Source of the DNA: Vezdaea acicularis
Taxonomy: Eukaryota
DNA: 64,000 nt
Assembly (NCBI GenBank): GCA_026025075.1
Contig: JAPEUI010000036.1
Span: forward strand, 1 to 64,000
Direction of reading: 5' to 3'
A model generated the notes under the pieces. That model was not told where the DNA came from. It worked only from the letters and a program-made list of their open reading frames with translations, and made no database searches. A program made the position numbers and the translations under genes. Numbering within the stretch: the stretch's first letter is position 1; every line of letters starts with the position of its first letter. This document shows positions 29,180 through 64,000 of the stretch, piece by piece.

Positions 29180-31750
29180 TGCGATCTCGTGTGGCGAAAG
29201 GTCCCTTGGCAGGCATTGAGGAGCACTCATCGAGGCAGAGCGATTGAAGCGACGAGGCGTTTGAGTTGTCCATCCTCGAACGCGGAGGGACGAATTTGAA
29301 GCTCATGATATGACGACTCTGTTTGCCCTGTGCGGGTGGAGCTCGCCACGGCCCCTCACCAAAAGCACGATAGGGTCGGCGGCAGCCTCCGACCGCGCTC
29401 TCACCCACCTTCTACGAAGACATCCAGTTCAATTGGTTTACGAATACATCGAGCCCACGTTCCGTCTATCCTTCGACGAGCAGAGGTGAAACCAAGTCAC
29501 GGGAGCAGTTGTGGTCAAGTTAGCAGGCTTGCACGGCCCGCGTCAAGCCGTTCCGTCGAAAGCATGATCACGACGTAACCAACGAACTGTGGGAGTAGCG
29601 ACGAATTCTTCCATCCAGCTTCGAGAAGGTGTTTGGGACGTCGGTCGATCGCGGATGACTCGACTGCCCTCCGCGGTGCTGGGGACGACTCCGGTTAGCA
29701 TCGCCATACGCCATCGCCAGTCGAGGCGGTCTAGCTTCGTTGAGCTGAACGGCCCAAGCAGTGGTGGGCAGACCCTGTCGCCTGCGTGCTTTTTGCTGCC
29801 CATTCGAGCCCGCCCTGCTCGTCCCACCAGCCGTCGCCGGCAGATCAGCAACTTACACGCCAAGGGCTTCCCAATACATGGCCACACGAGCGCTTGCGGG
29901 CAGAGAAAAAGGAAAAGGAACATGAAGGAGGAGAAAAAAGAAGAAAGGAGAGCGCGTGCGGGCCTCGTAATGGCCATGCTTGGATCGACGCCTGGGCATC
30001 CCGATTGGGCGTGAGCGTTGGGCGCCGGGCGGGTCGACCTCCCCTTCTCGCACGGGGACGGCGGACGAGGACTGCCACCAGCGCCATCGTGAGGCTGAGT
30101 GGAGGTGGGGATGCCCGAGACTCTGCGAGAGGTATCGCTTTGGGCGACCCAACGGGGCTGGGCATGATTGGTGATGGGCGCAGGAGAGTCGCCAGAACCC
30201 AAGGCAAACGATGCAGGTCCGTCTTCGCAAGCTGCCTTCATCTGTGTCTGGCAGACGCCCACGATCCCGTGCACCAAGGTAAGAAACGCTTTGCGGTGCA
30301 CGCAAAGGGGAGCCGGGACTCGGTCGGGGGACTCGGGCGTACCTCGAACGACGTCATGCTCCTATCAGCGCTTTGCCATCCGACGGGTGATGTGACCGAC
30401 ATACTGTACGACTGCGATGCGCTGTCCCAAGTCACCAGCAGCGACGGCGCCATGCTGTTCCCCGGCAGACGCCCGCCTGTCGCCAGGGCAGGAATCGGCC
30501 CAAGCAAACGTCGCAGAGGATATACAAAAGGAGGGTGTATTTTCCGCTCCTCCGCCGTCCGCCCGGATGGTGGGGTGAATAGGGCAAAGACGTCCGCGGA
30601 CCGCCCCGCGTCTTCATTCGTCTCTGACCGCCTGCTCCTGTGCCCGCTACGGTACGCCCCACCACGTCCCCCCCACCAGAGTTTCCTGGTACCCCACGAG
30701 AGGACGCTAGTCGGGGAACGAATACATCCCACTCTCGGGGACGACATCGAAGGGAACGACGAGAGAGGTGTTGATAGGCCGACGGAGGTGGTAGGGCAAC
30801 GGGCCTGCGCCGCGCGCTGGCTCGAGCGGATGCCCAATGCACGGGATGCGTGTGTGGTCACTCGTTCCGAGCAGCGCGCGAACGGGGCGGAGTCGTTGCG
30901 TGTGCAGAATGGAATGGATGACCAGCGACGGGGCAGCCCACAGCTGATTCGCCCCCGGCCAGAGTCGAAATTTTCACTCGGCTCTGTCGCGGGGCACTCG
31001 GATCGACATCATCGAGGGAAAGAAACCCTTCCATTCCTCCCGCCATGCGGTCCACGATGCCATTGACGCCAGATCGCGCACCCTGATGGCCGGCTGACGC
31101 GGTCTGCTACTGTAACGTGACTGTCGAAAAAGGGTCGGGCTCCCCGTCGCGCCTGCAGTAACCGGATGAGGGGATTCTGCCTTATTGTACTTGGCGCGTC
31201 TTAAGCGACGTCGACGGAGAGACCTGGAGACACCGAGAACGCTGCGTGATTGCCGCACAACTGGCGAGGCTATTGTGTATTTTCGGCGTCGGCGTTTTGT
31301 GCATGATGCACGGCGAGAAGCTCACGGCGGAGGGGGGGGGGGATGTATTCCACCGGTTTGCAGCTCGGCGGGAGCAGGGGTAGTTGGACCGGAGGCGCCC
31401 CTCTTAAACAAATGATGCGGCCGCCTCACCGTCGCAAAATCCGTCTCGACAAAGCTTCACCAGAAATCTGCGTTGCGATGGAGGACGACGCACATCAGCC
31501 CTCCTTCCCAGGACGATAGCCTTTGACCATACCCTCATATAACCTCCACCGCCACCCTGCACGGACTCGAAGTCAATTCGGACCTGGCAACATTGCCTGC
31601 TGACTGGCTGCTGCGACATCCTTCCCTTCACCGCCGTCCTACCTAGCAGCTCATCCCACCTTGTAGGAGCTCTGACCTCTCGACTACTTCACGAGCATCG
31701 CCGCCCGTTGCTGCTCAAGACCCAGGCTTAGCTGGGCCGGTCTCAATCAG

Positions 31751-34563
31751 ATGTGCGACGGTTCCGGAATGAGCCCGCTCGCTCTCTCGAGTCCCCGTTA
31801 CTCCCAGAACATGGTGAGTGGGCCGCGCATGGAACGATGCGCTTGCGACGGTGCCATATGCTAATCGTTCGTGACGTGCAGCATCGTTCGCACAGCAATG
31901 CATCGTCGCGCAGCCACCAACACGAGATTGCTCGTCAGTTGAGCAATGGAAGTCACCGCACTGCGCTCACCTCCGGCTCCATATCCTCCTACTCGCCCCA
32001 GAACCTCGACATGAACTACCCCTTCTATTATTCGATGGCACGGCAGCCCTCGGGCGATGCTTACTCGCCCAATCACTCGGCCGGTTTTTCGTTTTCTCAA
32101 GGGGGAAGGATCAGGAGCTCGAACGATCTGGGGACTGACGTCTACTATGGCCAATACACGCCCACTCGTTCGACTGCTTTCACTCCTCCAGGTTCCGGAC
32201 ACCCTAACCATAGTGGCTCAGTAGGCTCCAACCTGTCATCGAGCCAAGACTTCTACGATGCTCTCTTGACTGGCATACAAGACGTTCCCCCCCTTCCCCT
32301 CCAAGGGCCCGGAGAATCCATGGACGACAGTCTAACGGGAGTGGGCTATGGACAAAGGCCGCCCCCAGAACTATTCCATAACATGCTCAATACCCTTCCG
32401 GACCATCCAACTTCAGGAATGGCTGCTCCGTCCGAGATTTATGACCATGAGGGAGTTGAAAGACCCTACGACTTACACGTGGACCAGGCTTTGGAACCGG
32501 AGGCGAAGTATCACGCGGGCAATCTTACTGGCCATCTCCTTGGACCCCCTGCCCCAGGATTTCATTCCAATACTTTTCAAGGACCATGGAACGATCAGAA
32601 CCCACAGTTCGTGGATAATTCAAGCAGACCCAGCCGAGTCTTGTTCGTGGATTCCGGACCTACTCTAGAGGAAATTCACAGTCTTAGCCGGCCACTTAAA
32701 GGGTCTATTGATATGATGCCGCGGAAGCGTCCAAGGGAATTAAGCCCTGGGGAGGCTGACGAGGAGCAAAGCAAAACCTACAAAAGGCTAAAGCCGGAAT
32801 CGCCCTTGATCGAAGACGAGAACCTTCCCCCTTGCTTTCGCTGCCAAAACATGAAGGGAAAGGTAGGCACCAAGTGTGACGGTCTTCTCGCTTCGTACGC
32901 TAACCTGACTCGCTCCAGTGCGACAACAACAAACCTGTGTGCGAGGGATGCAAAAGATTGCTTCGAAAATGGAATGACTTTCCCGTGAGCTGCCTCGACA
33001 GTCGTGAACAGTGGAAAGTCTTCGTAGAGTCTTTCATACCTGGTATGTGCCTATCTACTTCTATACATTTCAGTGCTGTGCGGGTACTGATCTCGCTCAC
33101 AGACAAGTACAACGAGCACCTTAAGGTGGAAGCGCTAAAAAAATACTTCGACTTGAATGCCTCAGGCTGGAACGAAGACCGTGGCCCCCTCAATGTAGCC
33201 ATGTCCACCGACTTTGGGCCACCAATCTGGATCGAAGTCCATGAGTTTCGACCCAATGGACCCGAATTCAAGTTCCAATTTCATTGGCGCTATAACGATA
33301 TTACGGGCAGTCATGAAAATTGGACAGAGTATGCTGCGCCGTTGGCGATCATGGCCTGGGGTCCAGGTCACAAGTTCAACGACACAGAACAGGACGAATA
33401 CCTCGATAGGATTCTAGACATGTACTTGGAGGATTTTCCTTCTGCTTTATTTGACGAGGGGGATGTTAAGCTCCCGATGTCAATTCTTCAACATGTGTGC
33501 GCATGGTACAAGCACCTGGTCCGTGAAAACGGTGAGAGCAAGAGGGAGAAGGATGAGAGAGAGGTCCTTCGCTTTGCCCTTAAAAATTTGGTTATGGCCT
33601 ACATGTTTGGCCGTACGCTGAGCTTTACAGAAAGCTCTAAGCGTGAAATCTTCGAAAAGTTTGGGAGGTCTCCCGGCTTACCTGATGAGGACTTCAATTC
33701 GAGCCGGATGCTAAATCGAACCATGAAATACATCCTGGACAAGAAACACAAGGCGCTGATGAGGGAAACTCTGGAAAAGGTCTTCCGGCTGATCATAGGC
33801 AATTCCAAAGCCGCAAGGGCCAGTGCGTTCTGTGCGATTCTCTGTATCATAATGGCCGTGGAGGAGGAACAAATAAGTATTGTCCTGAATGTGAAGAACA
33901 AACAGGGTAGGGAACCTTCAAAGAAGCACAATTCTGCTTTCGGCGAAACAGACTATTTCCGAGGAGCCATGGAAGACAAACTTCGAAAGATCATTGCCAT
34001 CTTCAACCAGACGTACGGAAAAGGTAAAAACAGCATATTTCACACCTTGGGAGAGATACGCAAAAGGCAGACAGACGACACAAAACTCCTCCGCACAGCC
34101 TTTGAATTATGGACAACGGCCAAGTGCAATGAGCCGAAGACCCGAAAGGGAAAGTCCGAAAAATCACAGAAGGCAGAAGACGTTGTGAAAAAGAGGAGAG
34201 AAAAATTTTGCAACGAAGGGTTCGACTTTCATTCTATCGAATTCTTCGATAAATTATATGAGCTATGCTCCCACCACTGTAAGCTCTCCCTAAGACATTA
34301 TACAAACAACCGAACTGACCAACACCATAGTATACTATATTCAGAGGAGGAAGAGAATCCAAAAGGGAGATGAAGAGAAATTCACGAGTCTCAACACTGG
34401 GCGTCTGGTCTGCGATTTCTTAGACCAGTTAAAGTTCCTTCCCTCCCCACCACCGCCAGCGCCGACGTTGAATGGTTTCGATCCTACATTAGATTTCTAT
34501 GAGTCGGATTTTGGGCCTGGTTTTGAGAACCGGCTGCGACAAGATTACGGATTTGCCCTGTAG
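31751..34563 (+). CDS. Zn(II)2Cys6 fungal transcription factor, multi-exon; start uncertain
   Basis: Spliced cluster CFRCQNMKGK/CDNNKPVCEGC; introns 31814-31881, 32863-32918, 33043-33102, 34280-34330 keep the frame to TAG at 34563. Confidence 0.85.
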
Positions 34564-36179: not shown

Positions 36180-38291
36180 ATGACTTCTACTCTGAGTAAA
36201 CGCCAGCAGGCACGGAACGAGAAGACTCTGCAGGATTTAACAAGGAACGTCCCTGGTAACGATCGATGTGCGGATTGTCAGGCAAGGAACCCAGGTATGA
36301 GAATCTGTTCCTCCGTACCGGGGTGAGCGCGGAGCACTGACCAAATGTTCCTTTAGGATGGGCAAGCTGGAGCGTACGTCTCCCCTTCCAAGTTGCACTC
36401 TTATGAGTAATTGCGAGTCGCTTGCTACTTCATCATGGCGTTCGATGAACTTTCCAGCGTCTGAATTTCAGGATCAAATATGGCTGACGACGGCATGCTT
36501 AAACAGTTGGGCATATTCCTATGTATGCGCTGCGCATCTCTTCACCGGAAGCTTGGCACGCACATATCGAAAGTCAAATCGCTAAGTATGGACACCTGGA
36601 CAAACGAACAGGTTGAGGTAAGGTCTCCAGCAATAATGATGTGCGAGAGCAGGAGCAAGTCTGATTGGTAACTTTCGCAGCACATGAAAGCCGTCGGGAA
36701 CAATGTAAATAATCGCCAATTCAATCCAAACGGCGCGAAGCCTTCCATACCATTAGATATCGATGAGGTTGATTCAGCGATGGAACGGTTCTTGCGCCAG
36801 AAGTATGAGCATCGAGCCTTTGAGGTCGGATCTCGACGACCGACCGTCAAACACCACACAGGCTCAACGAGCTCAGACGAGCCGCCGCCTCTTCCACCCA
36901 AGCCGAACGCAACACGCTTCGGCTTCGGGGCTCGATCGGTGTCTTCGCCCTATCTATCCTCCAGTCATAACCGATTGAATCAGGACTCGCCCCCCTTGTC
37001 TCCAGATTCTCTCAGATATAATGGGAGGTCACCTTCTCCCCCAAAGGTAGACAAGTACACCCGGAATTACGCAGCTCTTGTCGGGTCCACAGGAGAAAGC
37101 ATGGAGTCTAAGCTGGCTTCTCTCAAGGATATGGGGTTTTCTGACGCAAAGAGGAATACAGTAGTCCTAAAGGGCCTGGGTGGGAATATGGAGAAGACAG
37201 TCGAAAGCCTCATTAGACTCGGAGAGGGCACTGCAGGACAATCGAGGTCGCGTGCACCGAATCCTCCAAGCTTTGATGAGCTAGTAACAGTAGCAGAGAA
37301 GCCGAAGGTTATGGCTCCCGCTCCTCCGAGTAACAACCCTTTTGAGCGACCTCCAACGAATGCTCAGCTACCTCCAACACCACATACTACTGGATCTCAG
37401 CAAACCTTTCCTCCACCCCCGATTTCAACCCAGGAATCAAGGGCCGATGGTGGCGGCTTCAGCTATAATCCATTCGGAAATTTCGTGAATACCCAGCCCC
37501 ACTCCGCTGAACTGTTGTCAAGCGGCGTTCAGATCTCCAAGCCTTCCTTACAGAATGCTGCTGGGGGTGTTTCTCTTCAGCAGCAGACCCAACCGCAGCT
37601 CGGGTCCACATTCACGAAAACCCTACCAGCCGCCCCCCAGCACGCTTATACATATCCTCAGCCACAGCTAATTCAGCCACAATCTACGCAACAGCCACCA
37701 GGGATGGCTAACGGCACCGCAAACCCCTTTCTACACCAGCCTCCACAATATCAGACGGCGACAAATCCTTATGTGCCGGTACAGGGAATACACCCATATT
37801 TGTCTGGACAGCTTGCTCAAACGCAGCCAGCTGACGCAAACGCATCCTTTCTCTATTCACAGCAGCAGCACATGCCTCCCTTCTCTGGACAGGCTGATGT
37901 GCCCGAGCAGCTTGTACGTGCGGATAAATCCAGCATCATGGCTCTTTTCAACTATCCGCATCTTGCCCCAGCACCACTGCCCACGGCTTCGCCAACCACG
38001 CTCTCGCCCACCGCCGAGCTTCCGTTGTCTAACAGTCAGACGCAGCCACCACTCCTGGTGAATGGTCCAACCCGTAGCGTGTCGACTCCTGTCGGTCCGG
38101 CCTCTGGCTCACGGAACCCATTTCTCAGCAGCAATGGAGGAGCGACGTCAGGCTCTGTGAGGATAGGAGCCATGTCAGTCGGCGGTGTAGGTCGACACGT
38201 CAGCCAGGAGAGTGTTGATATCGGTGGTCTTCAGAATGGGCGACACAGTCCTGATGCATTCGCCAATCTGAGCGCCAGGTTTGTACGATAA
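36180..38291 (+). CDS. ArfGAP-domain protein with UBA domain and NPF motifs (Gts1/Ucp3-like)
   Basis: CADCQARNP/GWASWS/LGIFLCMRCASLHRKLGTHISKVKSLSMD; UBA-like LKDMGFSD..NMEKTVESLI; repeated NPF motifs. Confidence 0.92.
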
Positions 38292-41200
38292 CGCGGTAGT
38301 CATTCGTCATGGGACGGGGGTTTGAATTAGGGAGCAGCCTGGAGGCAGCCAGGCAACCAAGGTTACGACATGCATGTCCTCCTAGAAGACCGGTGTTGCC
38401 TTACGGGGGGACTTGCACTCATTGGCGGTCATGTGCTGGTAGGCCTTGGAAACCCTAATTCCATTACAAACCGAAGCAAAGCGGTGACGCATTCGAGCCA
38501 GCACCGTCACGAACGCACCTCGATTGCTCGGAGCTATGCTCGGTGAACTCCGTAGAACGGCCTGCGGTGGACTTCTTATCGATGAGTGATTCGTACTGAG
38601 CGTGCAGATCTGATAGGACGCCATTGGTCGCGCGTCATGCACCTGCCCACAACCCCGCTCTCGCGGCCACGCCTCCCATGCCATCGCTTCAAGTTCCTTG
38701 GCTTTCCCCCAGCGGGACTCTTCGATTGAGCCGCATAGTCCCCCCCCGTCCTTCTCATGTGTGACTACTCATCGAACTCACGTCCTATTTATGCAGCCCG
38801 GAGGACGTTTGGTCGGCATCAACGAGTTCGAAATCACCGTTGACGACCGCACGAGAGACCGCCCTCAAGACATCGTCCACAACGCTCTATAACCTCACTT
38901 TTCGGCAAACGCTTAGTGCCTCGAGGCATTGTCGAATAGACGAAAGATATCGGAGCCCCAGCCAGTAAGACTCGTGCACAGCCGCCATCGCGTCGGAGCA
39001 TGTCTCCCAATCAGCAAGGCAGTCGAGATGGTACGTCCTTCCCACTCCCATCAGCCTCCGCCCGCTTGCTCCGTCCCAAACCCTGACTGACATCGCTTTT
39101 GCATCCCCACAGGTGGTGGTACGTCGGCGCAGCCTCCTCCCAAGGGCTGAGAGGACCACGATATTGGCATTCGACGCTCGTCCGCCGCGAGCCGGGCTCA
39201 TCGTACAGTCTTTGGAGATGGGAGGAAGCACGGCACTCCCATCGTGGACATAATAGTCATCTCTGCGCGGCGCGGGCGCTATGGACGGAAGGAACGAGGG
39301 GGGTGGAGGGAGGTGGGCAGTGGTGGGATGGTGGGGTGGGCTATTCACAGGTTCAGGACACGCGTCGGAGGGTGGGAGTTCTTCCGGAGTTCCACAAGAG
39401 TGGCCGTGGCTTTTATAGGCTGTCGTCCGGTCGAATGAACGTCGCTGTCTTCCCATGGCATGCCCTCAGGTGGCCCGGTAGCTGAACTCTCTTTGTGCGA
39501 TGGTGTTACCCGTGGCGCACGGTGAGACCAACCATGGTCGACTTCTGGAACGGCCCCCCTCGCCTGCGCCTGTCCACGACCATGGGCTGGAGGACGCGCG
39601 CGAAGGGGCCGGGACGGATCGAGAGGGTCGAGTGAACGGATCATTGGTGAAGTGAGATAGGGTCCGTTGCGCTCCCATCGACGGGGAAGACCTCCCGACC
39701 GGAGCCGCATGGGCTATTTGAGCTCGAGGGATTCCGCGAGGTCTTCCTAATGGTCGCCCGCTCGAATCTGCTCTATATCAGATTCTCATCCAGCCTCCAT
39801 CGCCGTCGCCCCGACGGCGCGAGCCATCACGAAGCCCGCGCGCGCTGATTACCGTAGCTTCCATCTGACGACCGACCCGATTCCCCGCACCGGCTCTCGC
39901 TTCGTTCTTCCCACGACCGCGGGCATGGATGGCGACCACGATGGGAGCGGGACTTCAGACAAGACCCGCGGCGGGAGTGAGTCCGATCGACCCGGGCGCA
40001 CCGTTTCTACCCATGGCGCACTGCGACTAACTTTGTACCTCGTCTGAGGTTAGATGGGACCTTGTACGGTTCGTGCTGAAGCCCTCCGACAGGCGGCGCC
40101 CACATCCCCGTCGCGCTGATAGCAGGGTCCCCGGCGGCCCTACGACCAATATACTCGAAGTACTGGCAGAAGCGCACGCCAGTGCGGGGCACCCGTGGAG
40201 GGTTGAACGGGGGCTCACCAGCACATCTCTCCTCACGCGAACACCGTGACCTGCTTTGCTGCTCGCACGCGAAAACGCGCCAAAACATCCAGCCGATCAA
40301 CTCGCGCTTACTCATCATCCACCACACGAGGTGGTCCGACAAAAGACTTCGACCGCGGAAGCAGGTGGAACTCGTCTTTCTCCTTGACCTCCTCACGTCG
40401 TCTCACGACTCTCCCTTTCCTTCTGGGGTATCAGGTGTTGGGGGGAATATCTGGTTTTCCGCTCATGTTCTCTTCTCTCTCCTTCCGCCCCGGCGGTTGC
40501 ATATCATGTCACCACGGAGCGCAAAGCTGTGGGCTCTCTCGTTCGGGCCTCGACCCTGCAGAGATCTGGCGTATGGGGCTACAGGAAGCTGGCGTTGCGG
40601 ATCGCATGAATTAGTGGCCTTCTACGTGCCTTCTCCTGCAGCCTTGACGCAGGAGCCATGCTGCTCTGCTGTGCGAGATGCATCCCTTCGTCACACTGTC
40701 CACCGTCACCGTCACACGACGGCGCCGCGCCCGTCTCCCACTCCCCTCTCCTCCTGCAGCGGGAGACCGGGACGTGACTCAACACCAAGGTGTGAATAGT
40801 AAATAAAGCGGTGCTCGAGCCCCCCTCATTTCCCCCCACCTACTCCGAGCGTGACCGCGTCGCCCTACTCGAGTGAGCACGACGGCCCGGCCGCCGATTG
40901 ACCCTTCGGCCCAGCTTAAGCCGAGCCGATGAACCTCCGCAACGAGCCCAACCCGCTCGCGCACGTAGGCCGGCGGGTCTGCTCGACCGCGATGGTTTCC
41001 CAACTGGCCGCCGCGAAGCAGAGCTGGGCGTGATGTGCAGTCCCCGACTTCGCTGGCCATTTCATCACGTTGCAAACCCACTCACGCGGCGAGGTCACCT
41101 GGCCGACACGATCGCTCCTCGAGCGCGCACGCCGAACACCGCCATCCTGACCAGCCGACGGCCAGCTCATCGTCCGTACGGCTCTCCTCAGTCCTCTCCG

Positions 41201-41987
41201 GGGGCGCGTTTCAGCGCATCCCAAGGCATACGACTCGATCGCGGTATGATATAGGGAGATGTAGACTGACGTGACCGTGCGCGCGACTGCCGCCGTGAGC
41301 TTGCCCGCGTCCGAGGCTATTCGAGGCTCATAAGCGCGCGCCCGTCGAAAAGGGCCGGCTGCGTCATCCGTCTCGGCCGAGGGCCGGGGTCGATAGACGC
41401 GGCAACGCATCAAAACCTGAGACATTTGGGGAGGCTCTTTGTGGGGATCGTCGATCAACGGCTGCGAGACGGCAGCACGTCTGCTGCGACGGGCCAACGC
41501 TGGAAGCACGTCATTGTCGATCTCCATAGGGTCTCTGGGTCACGGTCACGTCGCGCCTCATTTTCCAGATTGGTCGTCATCGCCCGTGCTCGGCAGCTTA
41601 GGTTGCGGGCTCTAGGGCAGCGAGCGACCTGATTCTCTGTCACACGCTGGAGCTCAGGGCCCTCTGGCGACTCTGCCCTACCAAGCTGGGCGGATTACGG
41701 ATCTCGCCTACGGGTGCTCCTAGGTGTCGACCATAAGCTTCGAGTGCCCGGTCCAGCCTATACACGGTGCTGAGCCAGGCCAAGCTTCGAAACGTGCTAC
41801 TTTGCTTCTCGGTTAGCGGAGGGAGTGTGATGGCGCTATGAGAGCTCCGCCGTCGGTCTCTCCGACTTTGCTCTCCGCTCTCTGGCTCCCTCCTCACTCT
41901 TCAAGAAGCCCGTTCTCCCCCCTTCTTTCCTCCATTTCTCTTCTTCACCCAAAATCATTCCAGAGCACTCTCGATTCCGCTGCAACG

Positions 41988-42221
41988 ATGCAAGCCGCCG
42001 CTCAATTCATGCAGCGCAACGGGCCCCTCAAGTACCTGACGCCGCCGCAAAGTCCGTCCTTCCTCCCGCTCTCGCCGCCTCCGACCCCCATCTTCTCCAA
42101 ATCCGGGGACGGCGACCGCGACGGTGAGTTGCGCTCGCGGATGCTTGTTGCAGCCTTCTCCCGGCAATCTAGGGCGCCTTTTGCTAATTCTCGAGCTGTC
42201 GCAGGTGGTGGGACCTCCTGA
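41988..42221 (+). CDS. Candidate spliced 50-aa microprotein (exons 41988-42123, 42205-42221)
   Basis: CT-rich leader, ACGATG start, intron GTGAGT(42124)..GCTAAT..CAG(42204); peptide MQAAAQFMQRNGPLKYLTPPQSPSFLPLSPPPTPIFSKSGDGDRDGGGTS. Confidence 0.55.
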   Translation: MQAAAQFMQRNGPLKYLTPPQSPSFLPLSPPPTPIFSKSGDGDRDGELRSRMLVAAFSRQSRAPFANSRAVAGGGTS

Positions 42222-42519
42222 GTCGCTTTCCCATCGTGGCGACTCATCGATCGTCGCCTACAGTAGCTCCCGCGAAGCTCGTCCACGCATCTCCTTATCG
42301 ATAAGATCGCGAAATCCCGCCGTCCTCAGCTCTGACCGCTCCTCCATCCTCGGGCGACTCGACCATCATCATCATCGCAGCATATTTCCCCATCGCCCCG
42401 TCCTATTCACACGACACATCCGCCCGCCCGTCTCTCCACGACCGCCGTCGCTCCCGACGCAGACGCATCCCTCATCGCGGTGCTTACCAGTTGAGCCGCA
42501 TGGCGGTTCCTCGGATGCA

Positions 42520-42553
42520 CACCATCAAGCACCATCAAGCACCATCAAGCACC
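42520..42553. repeat. 10-bp tandem repeat (CACCATCAAG) x3
   Basis: caccatcaagcaccatcaagcaccatcaagcacc. Confidence 0.9.
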
Positions 42554-43179
42554 GCCGCTCGCCATCTGCAGACGCGTGCCAAAGCTCCGTCTCGCTTACG
42601 CACCTCGAATCGCTTTCGGACGAGGTGACACCACCGTGCGACACCCGACCGAGGGGCGCGACAGGCATCTGTGCGACGCCCGCGCCCTAGCTCGTCGGGG
42701 AACGGGTGCGACCCACCCGACCAGGGTGCCCTACCAATACCCCGACCACGACTCTCTCCATTCACGATCTTCGCCACCGTCGCATCCGACGCAAACGACG
42801 CTGCTGGCTCCCCTCACACCGCCCTACGAGACTCGGTGCGACCAGGGGGTGTGGCTTCTTGCCGTCCAAGGCGACCTCTCTTGCGCTCTAACCGCACCTC
42901 CCGATATCTTCTGACGCCCTTACTCGTCGCGCGGTGTCCTCCACCCCGTGAAGACAACGACGGAATGGTGGACGAGCGCCAAGTGCTCGATGGCCCTCAG
43001 ATCTCGGGCCAACATCACACGGCCATGACGGCCCCGTAGCGACTCCTTCCAACCCTCACGTGGCCTTGATGATGTGTGCTCGGCCGTTCTTGCCCCCCTC
43101 GAACAACTGCGCTCCTTCCTCTTGACGCCCTCCCGCCATCCAACCTGCCTGTTCTGGGCGTACCGTCAGGGCGCATCGC

Positions 43180-43290
43180 CTCACTTCACACCACCTCACC
43201 TCATTTGGCATCACCTCACTTCACACCACCTCACCTCATTTGGCATCACCTCACTTCACTTCACCTCACCTCATGTCACATCACACTACA
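43180..43290. repeat. Degenerate TCACC/TCACT pentamer array with an internal higher-order duplication
   Basis: cacctcacctcatttggcatcacctcacttcac occurs twice in tandem, flanked by further TCAC(C/T) units. Confidence 0.9.
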
Positions 43291-43401
43291 CGAAGTTCTC
43301 TCGACCAGACTCACATTGTCATCATGCGGAGAGGATACCATCATACTGCCAGTCGTAGAACCATCCATTCCGCGTTCTACGTCCTCCTTACCTTTCATGC
43401 T

Positions 43402-43470
43402 TCTCTCTCTCTCTCTCTCCCTCTCTCTCTCCCTCTCTCTCTCCCTCTCTCTCTCCCTCTCTCTGTCTGT
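43402..43470. repeat. (CT)n microsatellite with CTCTCTCTCTCC higher-order unit
   Basis: Direct inspection. Confidence 0.95.
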
Positions 43471-44886
43471 CCTCCTTTTCCTCTACCAATCTCTCATTCT
43501 TACATTCCTATGCGGTTATCTTTTCTGAATTTAGCGTTGCGCGTTTCACACCATGTCAGAATCCATTTTTCCTCCATGTCCACGATCACCACGGCCTTGT
43601 CCTAGACCTTTCCCCGTCTGAGTTTGATTTAGCTGGCTTGACGTACTACACATCCTTTACAACAGTAACGACGGCACGACGATAACCCTTATGCCCCCTC
43701 TCATCTGCTCACGAGTTTCCTTGCTCCTTCCTCTCATCTGCGTCTTGCTTCATCCCTTTGTCGACAGGTGTCAGTTTTGGCGTTGGTGTTTTTGTGTGCT
43801 ACGGTACAGGGTATGGTGCGGGTGCGTGGGTGCATCCACGCATATAGATCGGTTTGTCGGTCGTCGGTTGGTTCGCACATGGCTAGGATTGGGATGCAGA
43901 CCAACGGGATTTACGACAGGATGAACGGATACAGGCCCACGCGATGTCATTTTACTTTCTTCATTGGCGATGCTAGCGCTTTGGCCATCATCGCATAGGG
44001 GTTTCGGATTTTTTCTGGGTAGGTTTTGGCTTTCGTTTTTCCGGTTTCTTCTCGTCGCGACAGGGGCCTGGGTTGGCGGGTTGGTTGGTTGGTTTGATTG
44101 GATGGATTATGCTAGATTGCTCTCCCGGCGTTGACGGCTTTGAGTTTGCTTGTGGAAGGGAAGTTTCTCTTGCGTACAATATAGCGCCTTCATGACTGTG
44201 GACAAGTCTTGAAATATATACCATTCATACCAATGAGGTCCACATGTATGCATATAGCTTTCCTACAGATGGGTACCTTTTACCAGCAACTCTCTTTACC
44301 ATCTGCTCCCTCATCCATTTCCCCCATCAGCACCGCATTATGGTTGCAAAACAATGTATTCTCCATCCACAACAAGAACTCCAGACCATACAATCAGCTC
44401 AGGATTCTATCTGCCGACATTGCTGCTGATCAACCTAAATGATAGCTACCAAAAATTGAACTGTTTCAAAAGTCAGAAATTTACATTGCATTTTTCAAGA
44501 TTGCACAAAAAGTGAAGTGCAATTACAAATATTAAAAAAAAAATTTCATTATCCATATAAATACTTTAAAAAACATAAAATGACATTAAGAGATTGATTG
44601 AGATTAAATCAGTTGATAGTTTTGTAATATTTTTTAAAATATTTATAGGGTTTTAGTGAGGATATTAACACTCAACAAAATTGTGATTGATAGAATTAAA
44701 ACTTTAAAAGGCATATATAATATTAATTCTTAGAAACATATTATTAGTATATAAAAAAGCATTGCAGAATATGGTTGTAAGTGTTTTACATTTGCCAAAT
44801 AGCTCATGCTTGATAAAGTTATTTTAAAATCTAAAGATTACCTGGATCTAATGAAATATGGAGTGGACAAATATATCAAATATTCT

Positions 44887-45611
44887 TGTAAGAACGCAGT
44901 GGCATCCGCTTAAGGCGCGCCGGCGTGCCCTAGACGGCTGTTCTTGTTTAGACGCCGACGGCGCTCAGGGAACGCTTAGTCAGCGCGCCTCTTATATATA
45001 TATCGAGTCGGGTCCGCTAAAGACGCGGCATCGAATAGTCTTGACCTATAGCTAGTCTTAGAATCTATTCAGGTAACCGCAATTCATTTGTTATATCACT
45101 ATATCGCTATATGTTATGGGACACGAGGTAGGGCGCGTCTGGGCAGGAGGAAGCATCGCCCGGACATAGGGGCTAAAGGGTAGTGGCATCTGGACGCAAG
45201 GATAAGGAGCGATCCTATGGCGTCTACTAATAGGGGCAGCGCTTGTACGTCATGCGACTGCCCTAGGACGGACAGCGCCTGCCGCGACTAGCAGCGCTGT
45301 CTTGTCCAGGCAGCCACGACCGGATATCCTTTGCCCTATATATATAGATGAATCCCCTAGCTAGATGAATGGAATAACTTCTTCATAAACACCGTTTACT
45401 GACAGGACGCCCCGTGCCCTGACGTATCGATGCCAGGACGCCCCGTGTCCTGACACTATATCATATAGCCCTGTGACATCGCTAGCTATCGCCAGCGGCC
45501 CGCCTACCCCTATAGCCTATTAAACACGCAGTGACACCGCAGGCGGGCTGCAGATGGCGCCGGCCTGCCATGCTCTCAGAATCAGGGGCAGCTATTGTGC
45601 CCGTCCTTACA
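44887..45611. mobile_element. Solo LTR (725 bp)
   Basis: Starts TGTAAGAACG, ends CGTCCTTACA (9/10 inverted match); flanks ATTCT / ATTTT (5-bp TSD with one C>T); internal TATA-like runs and a duplicated CAGGACGCCCCGTG motif. Confidence 0.85.
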
Positions 45612-46753
45612 ATTTTTCAATAAGTGTATAGCATTCTGCAACTTATGACATTTTTGCTATATATATTATAGATAGATATTATTCATATCAGAACACATTT
45701 AATATTAATTTTTAATCTCAGTTTTACTTTTACCTAAAGTATTATATTTTAGTAAAATAAATATTGTTAACCACTTGATATATTCAACAAATAAGGTAAT
45801 TTAATTTTTAAAATAACCGCATAATAAAAATTATTTTTATTTTTTTGTTTTATAAAAATATTATCCTGCAATATTCAAGATCAAAATTGCAAAGTGCTGT
45901 AGTTAAGTAAATGTAATGTTGATTTAAAATCATCATTTTTGGTGATTCACTAGATATAACGTTTATTACATATATATACTTTTCTTGATTATATTTATTA
46001 GTTAATTCTGTAATATAATTTTCAAACAACAAGCATTGTAAAATTCTATTGATATAAAAATAATGTATAAAGTTTGACATATTTATATATGTAAATATGC
46101 TTAAGTTCAAATTTAGAAATTAAATTATCAAACATTACAAATATAAAATTTTAATAATCATTTGAATTACAATTGCTTTAATTTGATCTATTAAATTGAA
46201 TATTTCTCAACAACAATTTAAAAAATTTCTATTCAACTTAGTAATGGTTGAAAAATTATTTATTTATAACTTTCTGACACATTTAATTAGAAATATATAA
46301 AATAAAATAATCTTTACTATAAATATACATTTTAATTTATAAATCATATAGTGGAATTAATAAAAATTTAATTACACAAAATAGTTAATCAATTTTAAAA
46401 CTTATAGGTTTTGTTATATCTTCAATGTAACTTAATAGTAACATTTTAACCTAGGCTTACATATTTAAAATTTTTTTAAAATTAATTAATATATCTCATA
46501 AGCAAAATAATTGCACAAATTATAAAAATTCTTATTTACTTTTTTAATGCATCAGTACACCTTTAAAAGATTGCTTTTGTTTAGATCAAACTGATAATAA
46601 GAAAACAATTAGTCAGCATTATCAACATCCGCAATAAACTTGTTAAAACTAGCTGGCAAAATTAAAACAGCTAAGCAATATGAAATTTTTTTAAACCTAA
46701 TTTAAGATGTTTGATAATAAAGTTTTATTTGATATATTTAATTGCATAGCTCT

Positions 46754-47017
46754 TGTCGTGAACCTGCCTTCCCGTGACTGCTGCTACGGCAAGCCTGCGC
46801 TACCCCTGCGTCACGTGATCACTGTCATATGGCAAAGTGGGAAAGCGCTGTGGAATAGCTCCTCAGTATTCAATCGTATAGATATTTACTATTGACTACT
46901 AAACTATTATATCGTATATTGCGTGCCGCCTGCGTGTCTACTGCGTGCCCACTGCATCCCGCATCACTTATCCAAATTGATCCTAGCCGCTCCCTGCTCG
47001 TACGCTACATCCTCACA
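46754..47017. mobile_element. Solo LTR (264 bp)
   Basis: TGT...ACA termini with perfect 5-bp TSD GCTCT (46749-46753 and 47018-47022); GC-richer than its flanks. Confidence 0.82.
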
Positions 47018-48533
47018 GCTCTAATATTTTATCATAAAGTATTTTACATATATAGCTTGGATTTATTATATGTTATTTATTTCTATTTTATATTATTTTA
47101 TATATTATCATTATATCTTTCAATCTAACAACTATAAAAATACTGCCTGCATATGCTTTGTATAGTGTTTGCATTTTTGCTGCAGACAAAATATAAACAT
47201 TATTCATTTGGCATACTTTTCGAAAAAAAGTAGGGCTTGTGCTTATTTTTATATATACATCTTTATTTTTCTAAAAGGTTATGGCAAGAATTAAAAGTTA
47301 TCAAAAAACATTAAATATTGCTATTCAATAACATTCAAAATTAAATGTTGATAAATATTCAAATGATTAAAACTAGCTTAAATGTAGAATTAACAGACAC
47401 AAGTGGTGTCATATTGTGTGATATGTTATAGAGACATATTGACTTGATTCTGATAAGAAATAGAGCAGACTTAGGGACAATGGAAAGAAGGAAAAGATCA
47501 GTGGAACTGTCTTGCTCAAGCTTCAAGCCATAATTTGGTATAACGTAATGGAATGCCGTAGCAAGAAGAACGTGGGTCAGGCCGTGAGGGATAAAATTAT
47601 TCAAACATCAAGAACCAGATGGGAACCTCGAGTAGCAACAGATCAATATAGAGCCGCCCGAGAGAGTTTGGTTGATTTCCAAAAGTTTTAAAGAATATAT
47701 AGCCACAGAGAAACCTATTGCGACGTCAAAAGCAAAATTTGTTGTTGCAACAATAAACAGATAAACATATTGCGTTCAAAGCCACCTAAATAGAATCTTC
47801 GAACTTCCCTTGGAATCACCTGAACAGGATCGTCGAATTCCCCCTGAAACCGAACCTAACACCGGATACCCAGCCTTTTCGCCGGGTAAGAAGAGAGAAA
47901 CAAAAGCGATCGCGCCTATTGACAGATAAGATGTATCGCCGTACCAACTAATCCCAGAGCACCATACCGTCCATCGTGCGATTGTTTCCGGGAATATCCA
48001 GTATCTCGATCGACTGTAGATCGATCAAATATCAATCGCCGCGCCAACCGGTCCAACGGCGCCGAGAAAAAACAAACGAACACACGAACACGAACCCTGC
48101 CCTAGATATCTTGTGCGAACTCCTTGCCACAAAGCTGTTGCCGAGAAGTTACAGGAGCTATTCAAAAGGTGCGCCGAGAAAATTTGCTTGGCAATGGGTG
48201 TGCTCCTCCCTTACACCCTTCCGGAATACGCCAATTGTCCCAACACTGTTTAAAAAACACTTTGTATCATTTCAGAAAGTCAAAGTTTGAATACCTAAAT
48301 GTTCTGCCGGTTATGGACACCTTTCTGCTGTCGTTAAGGTCATTATTGAGTATGCTGCAATTGAAAATAGAAAAAGTTGGCTAAAGGCAAGCATGAACCA
48401 TCCTACCTGATGTAGTGCCACTGAGCCACTTGCCTTCTGATCGCTTGATGCAAGTCTGTTTAGTAGGCCACCGAAATCCGCCCAGGAAAAAGGGGAGTAG
48501 CGAAAAGTAAGCACAAAGCTTGACGGAACGCCA

Positions 48534-51500
48534 CTAGTGATGCTCATATAATATCCTTAGCGCCCCACCGTGCAATCCAGAATATTTACTTAGGAGGAGT
48601 CGAGGAAATGGTAGGTGTAGCTGGAGTGACAGCTTTGGAAGAAGTTTTCTTAGCTGCCGCTCTGTGACCCTCAATGATAGCGATCTTCTTGCGCAAAGAG
48701 TGCCGGCGACCAGTCAAATGAGCGACAACTATGAGCAGGTCAGTTTTGTTCTACATACGGTGCAGAATGGTTCTCACGCTTTTCCACGTCCTTACGATCT
48801 TCGGCCTCAACTCCATTAATAGGACCGAGGTCAGTCTTGACATCTTGCCCAACGGTGCTACCCTTCTTTTGTGCTGAAGAATCCTCATTCTCAAGAATGG
48901 CCTCTAGCATTCGCAATGCCGTGAGATATGCCATTTCGCAACCTTTAAGGTCTTCTCCTATTAGCTCATTGACTGCTGCTGAACGGCTCATCTCCACAGC
49001 CCGTTCATACATCAGCTTCTCAGCTGTCACGCCAGGTGTCAAATGGAGTGTGTCTGATGACGATTCTCGGCCTGGATCTAATGAATCTTGATTACTGGTA
49101 TGATTAGGGTGAGATACAGGTAACTGGCTCTGGGCGTCTTTCAACTTCTGGCGGACAAATTCGGCTTTTTCTAAAGTTATGTTGAATCTGTCGCGTGTCC
49201 ATTGCACCACGTTATTGAAGCGAGTGGCCATGGCTGGATTTTGAGATGGCTGCATATCTGTTCTTGGCGTAGATGCTTCACCAATCACCTCACCACGGTC
49301 TTTCCGATAGAACCAAGCGCTGGCAATGTCCATGCCCTTCGCTAAGAGTCCTAGAGCTTTGACGTATAACACTAGAGCCTCTTCTGACAAGATCATCATT
49401 GCATCTGCTGTCAGTGCGACTCCTTCGTGTACATGTTCGCCATTGGCTGTTTGTAGCCCAAGCCCGTGGTCTGTTGAGGGGACCATCGGGATGAGCTGAG
49501 CGTATTTGACCTCAGCGAAGCCATATACCACGTCACTACGCGATGCTATCTCTTCGACAAGGTGAGTTACTCTGGAGTCCTCATCCTGCGGCCCCTTAGC
49601 CTTAGAATCACCAATAAGTATCAAGCTACCCCTAGGTGCTGGATAGACAGGAAATGCTCCATACCCCTGCGGAGGTGATGGACCCTTTCCAAGAGTCGGT
49701 GGCGAAAACCCAATGCCGAATAGCCTTAAATTTGCGAGATTTAGGGCTTTGGAGATAGCAGACGTTGTCGAGGTAGGACTGGCTCCGTATTGCCTTTCGT
49801 ACGAATTCTTCCGAGAGTGGTGCTGATCTGGACGCTGATGACCCGTGGCGATCTGCATAGCTCGAGACGGAGGCGCTTGAGTTCCAGTCGTGGACGTTGG
49901 GTGCCCTTGCGTTGTAGCACGACGGACCATCGCACCTTGCTGAGGAGCGGATTTTCCATAGCCTCCATGAACACGTGGACTAGCAGCTAGCTCATCCGCG
50001 AATGCATTCATGACAACAGCCTGCTTCTCGACAACGACGTAGTCACGCTCAAACGCAACATCCTGTTCCGCTCTTTGCCGTAATTCTCGGACTGCTTGCT
50101 CGTTGCGTTGTGCAGCTCGCTCTCGTGCGACTTGATTCGAGTTGCGGCTTACGTTTCTCTCCATTGGTACCGCGGCTCTTTGACCTTGGCCCTGTATCAG
50201 ATCTTGTCTACTGGGAGCCGTCGCTGCAGTCACTATCGAAGGGCGCCGATTGGTCTGAGCTGTCTGTCGTGCTTCACGTACACCAGCAACGTTGGCGAAG
50301 TTACTGCTATATCGTCGGCCTTGAGCGCTGGGACGAGAAGAAGCGCCTTGCGGCGGCAGGGAAGGGGGTTTCTGAGGCTCTTCGCGAACTTGAGCAACTG
50401 CGTTACGTCCATCGCCAAGCCCACAGTCTTGTTGGAATAAACCCCTTTCTGCTGTAGATCTGCTCTTTTCGTCAGTCACGGCATACTTCTCCATGTTTTT
50501 TGCTGCATCAGGAAGATCTTCCCGCCGAAGGCCTGGTATGTCATCAACGATGACAGGATCGTTGAAAAAGTCATCGAAGCTCATTCGCTCCACCGGCTTC
50601 CTTCGCAGAAGGTGCCGAATTAACCTTTTCACATCGCTGCTTACGAGGACGTCGTCCGGGAATCTTATCTTATCTTCGTTCTTCTCAATCTTTCGAAGAA
50701 GTTCAACGTGATTTGCTGCCCTGAAGTAAGGCTTCCCAATCATCATTTCAAATAAAACAGTGCCGACAGACCAAAGATCGGCCTTAGCGTCATACTTCTC
50801 GTAACGTAGTATCTCGGGTGCCATGTAAAGTGGAGAACCACATAGAGTATCTGCCAACGACGTGGACGGTAGCGATCGCGCGAATCCGAAATCAGCTAAT
50901 TTCAACATTGGTAAAGAATTGACCCCAGCTACTGGGACCAAGGAGTTCTCATTAATCGCATATGAGACGAGAGACGGGTGCGCCTTTAGGAAGTTCGGTG
51001 ATGGGTTGAGTAGCAGATTTTGTGGCTTGATGTCTCGGTGGACTAGATTCTTTGCCCGAAGAAACTCTAGAGCACTTGCTAGCTGTTTGAGAAAATGGCG
51101 GACGACGACCTCGTGGAAGCCACCATTTGGACTGGTTGGATACTTTGTTGCCATGTCGACAGTTGTCTCATGCTCCGCAAGTCGATCACGCTTCTTGATG
51201 AAGTAGGACAGGTCACCCAAGGAACAGTATTCCATGATAAGGTTGATATGTTTCGGGGTTTCGAAGCAATCAACAAGACAGACGATATGGGGATGCTGCA
51301 AAGCCATCAAGATGTTGATCTCCGAGGTTAGATTCTCTTTTAACTTCTTGTTGAGCTTTGTCATGTGCACTTGTTTGACTGCGGCAATGTTGCCTTTCTT
51401 CTACGTCATTAAACTCATTAGCTACTTCTATAGGCCAGCCAGGATGCCCAAGTCTCGACTGAGCTTTCGAGATCATATACGACAGACAAACAGCAAACTC

Positions 51501-59812: not shown

Positions 59813-62800
59813 GTCGTCTGCTCAGTCGCGGCAGCAGACTCGCATACCTCGGATAAGATGCGCAGATTGTCCGTCTGAAGCAGAAGCTGCCACGCGTGCC
59901 GAGTTCCTCAGCGACGAAGAACAGGTGAAGTGGAGATGAGCAGCAACGGATGCCCACGAACGGCGCCTGAAGGGACACGATCCGGCGGAAAAATGAAGGC
60001 CCGTGGGAAGAGAGCGTGGGTCGTTCTGGTTGTGGGGGAGACGGTAGGAATGGAGACAAGCTTCGGGAAGTCGGAAAATCGGCTTTGCAATGCTCCGTTG
60101 GTGCGCGTGCCCGTACGAGAGCTCTGCCTCATCGGTCAGCGCTCAGAGGCATTGATCTCGTCAGGGGATGGAACGATGGCGAATGGGTCCTGTATCACAC
60201 GGCGACCGTCGACTGGCAGCAGCAGAGGAGAATGGAACGGAGCAGCGCACAGCTTGGGTCGGGCGCGGGAGGGTCGGGAGCGGAGAAACGATGAGACGAG
60301 ACGGGAAAAAAGGTGGAGGTCGAGTCGGCCGAAGCGAGCTGGTGCAGCTTCCAGCTCCCCCGTCCGGTCCCGCAGCCTTTTTTTTCCCTCCAGCCCTCCG
60401 CCCGCTCGCTTCGCGGCCGGGTGCTCGTGCGGGCCACGGCGCCCGGCTTGCATCGTCCCACTCTCGCCGTCCGAAGACAGAGGAGAGAGGAGCGGTCGAG
60501 CTCCAGCGAAAAGTCAATTGCACACCTCACCGGCAGCCTTCCTGCAGGAAGATCGGCACGGCGGCCGTGTCGTATGGGCAGGCGCGACTGGCGGGCGGAT
60601 GATGGACCGATGAGCTTACATAACGCGGCGGTCCATCGGCAAGCTCTCCGCGTCGCTGTTCCGCCCTCGCAGCACGACGTAATGAGTAACGTGGTCCTGG
60701 TTGACTCCACATTCCCGTTCTCGTACTCGACTGCCCTTCCCCTCGTGCCTCGACCCACGCACGACGGGCGGTGCATTCGTATCGTGGTCGCTCGCTACCT
60801 CCCCGACCCCGAGAGGGCCTTCTGACTGGCTGCCGTCATGCGTTTCGGGCAGAGGTGGGGAAGCTTCATAGACCCTGAATGCAGTCGGACGCCCGAGATA
60901 GCCATCGACAGCAGTCACTTGCTTAGTTTGCCTATCTCGGACGAAGGCAAGTTCAAGACGGGGGGCACTGCCGCATTTCTCGGCTGGCGACGGGAAACGG
61001 GCAAGACGGGGCAACCGACGCTCACGAGCCCTTCGTGCCCTTCTCCTGCCCACCGACGAATCGGGAGAAAGTAAGAGGCGCTGGTGCGCGTTCGCCTCAG
61101 TTTGCCCGACCTGTCACCCTCCTTCGTCCTCATAGACGTCGTGATGTCGTGATATCGCACATCCTAGCGTAGATCCAGCGTCAAAGGGAGCTGCAATATC
61201 TCTGGGGCTGTGCGGATGGGAGACAGCTTCGCATAGCAGCTAGATACGCTGCCTGACCACCCTGCCAATCAGTCTCTTACGTCTTCCTGATTGTCATGGC
61301 CGCACTGAGGGAGGCACCGACGATGGGTATGTACGTGCTTCCGTATGAACCTGACAGCGCTTCCATCACTCTAATGAATACGGCCAGCACCATCCAAACA
61401 AGCACTCAAGCTTGGTGTTCACGGTTGCGGTGATTTCTCTCTGCAGCGGACGCCCAAAATGCTCCGTGAGCGGCCCAATCAGATCTGCCATGCAGCGAGA
61501 TCCGTTGTACATATCGGCATACAGAGGCGAACGATCCCTGTGGTGATTGTGGCCGGTCTTCCGTACGACGAGGTCCGACATGCAGCCCACCAGATCAACA
61601 CCACATCGCACCTAGAATAAGCTATCTGTCTGGACCATCGGCCTATTCTTACCCACCACCCTGATGACGGAGGATCATTGCATGCTCCGTAGCTAATTAC
61701 ACTGGCCTGCCACGCACGCCGTGTAAGATTTGTTCGCTTGACTGAAACCATCACCGTTTGGGAAGAATAGAGAGCCTCTCTCTTGGCCGCCTCCGCGGTG
61801 ATGCAACCACGACCATCATGCGACGACTGCTGGAGGGCATGGTGTCTTCAGCGGAGCGCTAGAAGGAGCATAGACGCTTTCGGAGGCCTGGCCAAGACGC
61901 TCACGATGCGATCTGCCGGGGTCGAGGTACAGACGACTCGGTATTGGTCACAGATCCCTATGGCTCGAGACGTCGGAAGTACCAGCCCCCTCGTCGAAGT
62001 AGTCACGGATGACAAGCTAGGATGAAGGCCAAATCTCCTTGGGGACGCACCGACCTTCGCCTGGCCCGAGACACCGACCACGCCCCCTCACGGAGTCGCC
62101 GCCCTTGTGCATTGCGCCTGCATTCCCGCCGCCATCGTCCTCATGCCGCGGCAGGAGTGGCCGGTACGCCACCATTCATCTTCACGATCCCAAAGGAACA
62201 GGCAGCACCAATAACACAATGCCATCATCTTCACACGGCTTCTGTCGCAGATCATGCACATCGCACCACCAGCGCGCATCGAGGGTCGTGGGCCTTCCGG
62301 TCAAACACCAAGGTTGCCACCCTCCCCGCCTTTCGATCCTCGACCTCCACCTTGACGTCGACACCGATGTCCACGACGCCGTTCCGCTCTAGCGTGGCCC
62401 CACCGACAACGTTTGGACGGATAGGCAAGCTTCACATCGCGACTTCAAACGCCCTTGTATGTCATCGTGACGATGATCACGAACCGACCTTCAAAAGAGG
62501 AATCTCCGCGAGGTCCGGTCCGCGCACGTTCCCGATCGAGGGAGGCGCGATCATTTGGGGTCAAGTCGAGGCTCCCTCGACGCTGCTACTTGCGACTGCC
62601 GACTGCGGGGGCTGGGAGATTATCAGAGAGTGCCACATGGAGTGGTCTTGGATCGCGAGCATGACTTCACGGGCGAAGCCACCGAGGGGCTTGCAGCCGG
62701 CCCCCAAGAGACCAGAGACAGCAGCAGCCATACCGAGATTGGGCGAAAGCGGCGCGCGCGAGTCTAGAGCGCTGGAGATGACGGGCATCCGCGAAGTCTT

Positions 62801-64000
62801 ACGCACAGAGCCCGGGCATGCTCTCTCGTTCGATGGGGGGCCCCATCATCCCCCAGCGCATCCGCGAGGCCCTGACGACCCAAATGAAGGCCACGCGGGA
62901 GACGGGCGATGATTGGCGGGGCTAGAGGGTTCGGCTGCGCGTGGGGAGTTTCCATGCTGCTTCTCGAAGGCCCTTGGAAATGTCTCTCCGACGTCTGGTA
63001 CGGGGGCACTCGACCATGTGTCGCGACGCATGTCACAGCCGGGATGCAGGTGATGGGATGCAGGGCCTCTTGCAGCGGCCGACCGGCATCCGCCGCGTCG
63101 AGTTGCGCCAGGTCGGCGAGATGGGCGGGGCGCGATGGTCAGGGAGAAGGTTAAAGTTATGCTCACCCATCCCCGCCATCCATGTCCGTACCCGTTTCTC
63201 AGGCAGAGCAGCGCCGAGCGTGGACGTGGAACAAACACTCGTTCAAACACACTAGTGTCGCCCTGCGCCAGGGGATGCGTCCAAGTCGGAAGGGGGGGGG
63301 GAGGAAGAGAGGCACACGCACTTGGGGGTTGGGGTTGATGGGGGGTGGGCCGCCGTCGCTGACACGCCGGGGCGGAGTTCGCTTGATCCCTGCGCCTTCT
63401 CTTGCGCCTTCTAGCGTTCTTCAGGCCCCGGTCGCTCGCCCCATCCCGGATGGGAAGGGACGATGTGGCCGACCCAGACCGAATCGTGCGGACTCGGGGG
63501 AATGGAGGGGAGGGAGAGGAGGGTGTTCGGGAGACGAAGGATGCGGCGGGCCCACATTTCCTGGTCGACGACGATGGGTGTGAACGATCGGTGCACGACG
63601 GTGCCTGTGTCGGGGAACAGCAGCACCGCACCGCAACACAGGAATTGCACGTGAATCTCGGCGGGTCGTCGGTTCGCTCTCGCGTCGACTGATCGATCAA
63701 GTTTCCGTCACGGCCGGAACAGCGCCGGAGCAGCGGCGCCGGATCGGCCGCTCGTGTGGGGCGCCGCGGTCGGGAAGAAGAGGGAAGGCCCCGGTCTGGC
63801 GGCCGTTGAGCGTTGCCGATCGCATCAGGGCTGAGCGTAGACGAGGAGCGTGGAGGGGACAGCAACGAGGAGCCAAGAGCGTGGGTGGAGGGTGGTGGTG
63901 CAAACATGCGCCATCGACCACCCCCAGTCACTCTCGTGCCATGTGTGCGACGTGCGAACTGCAGCGCCGACCTTCGTCCGACCGCGAGAATCCCCCCACC

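Follow-up and report, generated by a model that had tools for sequence, protein, structure and literature searches.

The window analysed here is a 64,000-nt stretch of the genome of Vezdaea acicularis, which is 18.9 Mb in size. A GC-rich gap between an ArfGAP-UBA gene, which ends at 38291, and the minus-strand ATG1 gene hosts a series of micro-ORFs; the flanking genes and the introns are of a fungal kind. Three of them, named A, B and C, have the motif G[DS][RH]DG[GS]GTS in common and lie on one strand within 3.3 kb. The features of the locus are as follows.

36180-38291: ArfGAP gene upstream of the cluster, with introns and a UBA-like domain
39000..39030, plus strand: exon 1 of ORF A, with an ATG that has A at -3 and the first half of the motif
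39031..39112, plus strand: intron of ORF A, 82 nt, at the codon and phase of the intron of C
39113..39150, plus strand: coding part of exon 2 of ORF A, which has 22 codons when spliced
39281..39418, plus strand: 45-codon ORF that opens with a weak motif-like stretch (39284-39313)
39500..39655, plus strand: ORF D, 51 codons, with a weak, possibly diverged copy of the motif (39590-39619)
39925..39976, plus strand: exon 1 of ORF B, with ATG 39925 followed by the whole motif unspliced (39928-39957)
39977..40053, plus strand: uncertain candidate intron of ORF B, 77 nt, 25th percentile in splice score
40731..40778, plus strand: stretch E, a possible decayed copy of the end of exon 1 of C, out of frame
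41860..41987, plus strand: C+T-rich leader of C, a probable transcription start region with a predicted start site
41988..42123, plus strand: exon 1 of ORF C, codons 1-45 plus one base
42124..42204, plus strand: 81-nt intron of ORF C, in phase 1 and interrupting the shared motif
42205..42221, plus strand: coding part of exon 2 of ORF C, with the rest of the motif and TGA 42219-42221
42222..44230, plus strand: probable 2-kb 3' UTR of C, of presumed extent, with CACCT and CT repeats
48743-51400, minus strand: main exon of ATG1, oriented towards the cluster

The structure of ORF C proposed in the initial annotation was recovered as claimed: it starts at ATG 41988, with A at -3, contains the 81-nt intron and has 50 codons when spliced. 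Exon 1 carries two pairs of Pro-directed sites (T18/S22 and S29/T33), lysines 15 and 38, and the first motif half. The intron has a GTGAGT donor, a GCTAAT branch at 42183 and a CAG acceptor, and its splice score lies at the 99th percentile of 168 coding-flanked pattern introns, a set that includes false introns, so that all percentiles given here are only a guide. False introns are to be expected in the set because the broad intron pattern is no commoner in real DNA (396) than in shuffles (406). Strict-pattern introns also appeared in 300 shuffles of the region, with a mean of 0.83 and at least one in 56% of them, and the intron pattern alone is weak evidence for gene C. Removal of the intron at exactly these bases has its decisive and independent support in the junction, which rebuilds the motif present unspliced in B.

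The coding signal was evaluated with background models built from 845,369 bases, consisting of the window and 781 kb out of the organism's own genome. GC contents at the three codon positions of C are 0.62/0.58/0.82, where 265 long ORFs show a GC3 of 0.53 in the median, and C has the top in-frame coding score among all 150-nt windows in six frames at 38.2-45 kb. When compared with 399 ATG-started 45-codon stretches in GC-rich DNA, a null set that contains C itself plus real short exons, its coding score is reached by 3.3% and its GC3 excess by 5.8%, and the coding score taken alone is modest. It was found by protein search that C is single-copy in its own genome. With these signals and the motif together, ORF C is very likely a real unannotated small coding gene, and the support for it is stronger than the initial annotation could show. 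The same annotation held C to be the only convincing gene signal in about 6 kb. This was not confirmed, as two more strict introns, 39031-39112 and 39977-40053, lie on the same strand and each is tied to a short motif-bearing ORF. An upstream in-frame ATG at 41838 was rejected as the main start of C (score -3.3; located before the C+T leader). It would lengthen C by 50 residues if a longer transcript exists, and is overlapped by a three-codon ORF at 41830-41841.

The CT-rich leader reported for C was borne out, with a best 50-nt C+T content of 0.84 at 41913 against background 95th and 99th percentiles of 0.78 and 0.86. The best leader values of A (0.66) and B (0.70) are at the background level (median 0.64, 75th percentile 0.70), and among the three ORFs only C has a strong C+T leader. 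Between B and C there is an AATAAA at 40802, and further on, near 44212, an end signal rich in A/T. In the coding profile, 42222..44230 contains no ORF with a clear coding signal, and no main ORF was found downstream of C on the same strand; if A and B are uORFs, their main ORF could be C itself. The arrangement would fit one RNA for A, D and B plus another for C with a 2-kb 3' UTR, or else one long RNA. The presumed 3' UTR has tandem repeats at 42520-42553, 43173-43285 and 43402-43468 (10-nt; 35-nt of CACCT units; CT). Another strong C+T-rich stretch (0.84) lies at 40360-40500, ahead of ATG 40506, which opens a 97-codon ORF with no coding signal; the stretch may belong to a 3' UTR or have served as leader to a copy now decayed.

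For ORF A, both splice sites and the branch point of the intron are kept and the splice score lies at the 82nd percentile of the 168 introns. The spliced junction reads R-D-G|G-G-T-S, which is the same as in C, and the coding score is 1.8 with a GC3 of 0.50. ORF B has 40 codons unspliced, with its stop at 40045-40047, or 25 codons spliced, with its stop at 40077-40079 and a weak second half-copy of the motif across the junction. Its coding score is 2.5 unspliced and 1.3 spliced, and in the spliced form another frame outscores it. Codon bias therefore gives little support to A and B.

The motif is the link among the three ORFs. In A and C it arises only after splicing, and their introns interrupt it at the same codon and phase, while B carries it unspliced. 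In a blind test, nine junction residues were compared in 131,274 pairs among 513 pattern introns from the 845 kb of own genome. A-C was the sole pair matching at 8 of the 9 residues; no pair matched at 6 or 7, and 26 pairs matched at 5. Over the seven core codons, which encode identical residues, A and C differ at 0/7 first, 0/7 second and 5/7 third positions, and the chance that all five changes fall at third positions is about 0.001 (21/20,349, by our own arithmetic). The two introns are unalignable, with 87% of 2000 shuffles scoring as high. The ten codons of B and C differ at 1/10 first, 1/10 second and 6/10 third positions, but B was first noticed through its peptide likeness and this bias is partly built in, so the independent test is that of A against C only.

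Searches with a single copy as the query gave the same grouping. When the motif of C alone was used, B ranked 1st of 1,689,906 unspliced positions (45 bits, with the next at 35; 40 bits was reached in 0 of 2000 local shuffles), and A was the first non-self entry of 65,605 loose junctions (44 versus 34). When the motif of B alone was used, the junctions of C and A ranked 1st and 2nd of the same 65,605. All three ORFs preserve the motif as an amino-acid sequence, whereas no likeness remains between their introns or their flanks. The third-position-only changes between A and C, their unalignable introns and their unique junction match together point to an old duplication followed by purifying selection on the peptide. 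We take A and C, on these sequence comparisons, to be products of an old duplication, and the motif is very probably under selection as a peptide. A DNA- or RNA-level element was rejected, as the motif is split by introns, its third positions vary and its +1 frame is not kept (by eye). The in-genome paralogues thus serve as evidence of purifying selection on a peptide of 9-10 residues.

Weaker candidates lie within the cluster. With a three-copy profile, the motif-like stretch of ORF D ranks 50 of 1.69 million and that of the ORF at 39281 ranks 29 of 1.69 million; two such hits occur in 1% of 2000 shuffles, a value for which the threshold was chosen after the hits had been seen. Among 11,282 segments, stretch E ties for the closest DNA match to the last part of exon 1 of C, self-matches excluded, and no acceptor that would complete its motif was found. 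We regard D, the ORF at 39281, the half-copy at the junction of B and E as possible copies of the family.

Outside the cluster, the seven-residue pattern has 9 matches genome-wide against 9 in the control, so that only the clustering is unusual. By protein search no other copies were found in the own genome, and 15 of the 17 matches of the exon-2 pattern lie elsewhere in the genome, where the control gave 21. Three other spliced-pattern matches were discarded (their motifs are weaker, and the last upstream stop is followed by no ATG in frame), as was a DNA match on C42, which is a simple repeat. A 302-codon frame (L108 978-1886, minus strand; G000:C309) with no Pfam match has two R-D-G-x-G-T-[ST] stretches 51 residues apart, either a chance occurrence or the motif embedded in a larger protein. 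The exact seven-residue core occurs once in a fungal fucose-lectin-like propeller protein (L104 670-1971; G000:C187), probably by chance.

The initial annotation described C as built around two tandem Cdc4/Fbw7-type phosphodegrons. The Cdc4 consensus is I/L-I/L/P-pT-P-<KR>4 with a second phosphate at P+4; S at P0 binds more weakly and natural Cdc4 substrates also carry mismatches (PMC5216119). Both Pro-directed sites are indeed present and largely fit: T18 and S29 have I/L/P at P-1, T/S at P0, P at P+1 and no K/R at +2 to +5, and S22 and T33 supply the second phospho-acceptor at P+4. The fit fails at P-2, where Tyr16 and Pro27 stand in place of I/L. The degron part (codons 1-26) has a coding score of 4.2. 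A doublet of such sites occurs in 2 of the 399 null stretches, most likely the two in-frame starts of C itself, and single sites number 14 in 122,032 residues (14 of 231 long ORFs). A Cdc4 orthologue is encoded in the own genome (L118; the best F-box match is yeast Cdc4, E 5e-92). The genome also has an FWD-1/beta-TrCP-like F-box gene. The Cdc4-like sites of C are plausible as putative phosphodegrons. Among A, B and C they are confined to C, and the selection that can be seen falls on the C-terminal motif that C has in common with A and B, both of which are degron-free. The description of C as built around the degrons is therefore not supported, and the sites look like an added turnover timer on C. 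The feature of interest is the motif-sharing microprotein cluster at 39.0-42.2 kb, not the degron pair. As for the retained-intron isoform, the unspliced frame of C is stop-free over 77 codons as had been reported, but the intron has no coding signal (score -0.3), the intron of A, at 82 nt, is not in frame, and retention would split the motif, so that such an isoform is not supported.

Our tentative explanation, given a little less than an even chance, is that C is the largest member of an old tandem micro-gene family whose motif peptide acts in trans, with C as the timed form; action of the family in trans, taken as a separate claim, is put at just under evens as well. The ORFs A, B and C would be translated into disordered peptides whose working part is the Gly-rich acidic motif, a short linear motif that would bind one receptor domain in trans. 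The receptor would most plausibly be a peptide-binding propeller or a part of a ubiquitin ligase, comparable with the action of Pri peptides on Ubr3. C would be the regulated form: it would be transcribed from a promoter of its own, carry a long 3' UTR and possess two sites of the CDK/MAPK-then-GSK3 type through which SCF-Cdc4 may remove it. A, B and perhaps D would be motif-only forms, possibly on one polycistronic RNA. The comparisons suggest a family of overlooked regulatory peptides.

The main rival is a cis-acting nascent-peptide signal. Under this alternative, which we consider unlikely, the motif would slow or stall the ribosome in certain conditions, A, B and D would be uORFs controlling the translation of C on a long 5'-extended RNA, and the copy of C at its stop would set the stability of its own mRNA with the long 3' UTR. 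Sequence-dependent uORF peptides are established in fungi, with the arginine attenuator peptide as precedent; A and B have no leaders of their own, all motif copies lie upstream of or within C on one strand, and in C the motif abuts the stop. However, in uORF peptides that stall the ribosome the distance to the stop tends to be constant, and here it varies from 0 codons (C) to 8 (A) and 14 or 29 (B). C also has its own C+T leader, with the AATAAA at 40802 separating it from B. Conserved-peptide uORFs are short, conserved at the amino-acid level and sometimes interrupted by introns, but unlike them the cluster has no main ORF after C on the strand and repeats its motif in several ORFs at varied stop distances. 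If C is instead taken, along the lines of the initial annotation, as a stand-alone phosphodegron microprotein or a decoy for Pro-directed kinases, GSK3 and SCF-Cdc4, and the motif as secondary, then the fit of both sites from P-1 to P+5, the rarity of doublets, the coding signal over the degron part and the presence of Cdc4 in the genome are accounted for. A and B, which keep the motif with no degron, are then left unexplained, P-2 is Tyr and Pro rather than Ile/Leu, and single sites are found in 14/231 long ORFs. We consider this quite unlikely.

A reading in which A, B, D and E arose by duplication of an ancestral small gene and are now defunct or decaying, with only C or no member functional today, is decidedly improbable. 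The weak codon bias of A and B, their missing leaders, the frameshifted look of E and the failure to find a homologue would agree with such relics, but A keeps 7/7 residues with five synonymous changes while its intron interior has become unalignable, and its two splice sites, its branch point and an in-frame ATG of good context are preserved as well. A free calcium-binding loop, with the peptides acting as ion-dependent ligands or buffers, was also considered, as D-G-D-[HR]-D-G in B and C fits the pattern Dx[DN]xDG (PMC3123361). Only 2/3 copies fit, since A has Gln and Ser in place of the first two Asp; C ends four residues past the loop with no downstream acidic ligand, and the invariant residues are the Gly-Thr-Ser end and not the first aspartates. 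This is very improbable.

When compared with known systems, the cluster resembles in its layout insect pri/tal, a polycistronic gene at a seemingly non-coding locus, with four motif-sharing short peptides acting in trans through the ubiquitin ligase Ubr3 (PMC10635573). Both have several small ORFs at one locus with one selected motif. The differences are that the present cluster belongs to another kingdom, that A, B and C are spread over 3.3 kb where pri is one polycistronic mRNA, that two or three of them have their own introns and that one has Cdc4-type sites. The ORFs of the cluster may or may not share an RNA; only C has a strong leader. By eye, the motif of A, B and C does not agree with the arthropod Pri motif. 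The fungal cluster would thus at most work like pri/tal and is not a member of it. A bolder reading makes it an independently arisen fungal counterpart whose motif peptides are clustered or polycistronic, in which splicing inside the motif activates the peptide, a ubiquitin ligase is retargeted and one member is timed by a Cdc4 degron; we think this doubtful.

Like the Cdc4/Fbw7 substrates cyclin E, Sic1 and Ash1, C has L-T-P-P-x-S and L-S-P-P-x-T with the P+4 site and no basic residue at +2 to +5; unlike them, it has no Ile/Leu at P-2, the sites occur in one of three members and they are putative, being read from sequence. The beta-TrCP degron consensus is DSGxx(x)S (PMC11403584). The motif resembles the beta-TrCP/FWD-1 degron in having an acidic residue, a Gly and a Thr/Ser a few residues on. 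It differs in that a basic residue precedes the Asp and in that the Gly of A and C lacks a preceding Ser; the phosphorylatable first Ser is absent from these two, and in B the S-G is preceded by Gly. Judged by its sequence, the motif fits no receptor consensus fully, and it fails as a family member for both the beta-TrCP degron and the calcium loop. Yeast microproteins such as Nrs1 are, in the accessible text of a review, small regulatory ORFs missed by annotation (PMC11413187). C resembles Nrs1, as far as it is described there, in being a small unannotated ORF, but the microproteins named in that text each come from one gene, and it describes no tandem cluster with a common motif; the word 'tandem' is absent from the review.

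Homologues were searched for in several collections. Exon 1 of C gave no candidate among proteins of 24-79 residues and 9 candidates among proteins of 80-2000 residues, none of them at E<=10. Unspliced B gave no candidate among proteins of 22-70 residues. HMMER over 1.84 billion representatives gave 0 matches at E<=0.001, and two frames submitted to exact look-up were absent. The ESM Atlas had no usable match for C and only leads of 0.77 and 0.75 for B; Pfam gave nothing for C, B, D, E or a 216-codon alternative frame; PDB gave nothing for B and only one low-complexity Pro-rich match for C; and the 2 Rfam matches were far below threshold. Two loci from a metagenome scan were set aside as low-complexity matches with no start, intron or motif. 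Prokaryotes dominate these collections, which depend on gene calls and on words in common and contain small ORFs of fungi in low number, so that missing homologues are weak counter-evidence; the queries were unspliced frames or exon 1 and not the spliced forms, and a relative with nothing but the complete motif in common would escape detection.

In published full texts, four motif strings returned only unrelated papers. Searches of the openly accessible literature on microproteins of fungi, loci of the pri type, uORFs with conserved peptides and surveys of small ORFs in fungi showed no such fungal cluster. A small-ORF survey of 31 genomes used start-to-stop ORF finders, and the four strings are absent from three of its text supplementary files (PMC7394265). 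Two of the three motif copies exist only after splicing, and therefore gene finders and intron-blind small-ORF surveys would miss the motif. This could be the first motif-sharing microprotein cluster found for fungi. If translated, the ORFs would represent a new family of fungal peptides whose defined motif is usable for synthesis, mutation and as bait, and comparing the junction peptides of orphan introns would offer a simple route to more such families.

Some features of composition were observed around the cluster. A very AT-rich block, down to 26% GC, occupies 44500-47500 and is possibly a mutated transposon relic; two short GC-richer islands lie inside it, near 44.9-45.6 and 46.75-47.0 kb. 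Further GC-rich islands with long overlapping frames are located at 29500-33000 and 59900-64000, and the one frame of these tested against Pfam gave no match. In the own genome, GC3 is correlated with upstream GC (r 0.49, 309 ORFs). Of the two ORFs with the highest GC3, one is a cyclin gene (L062 7611-8918, minus strand), with a GC3 of 0.85 and GC-rich upstream DNA; it belongs to the compositional class of C, and the setting of C is thus common to at least one regulator.
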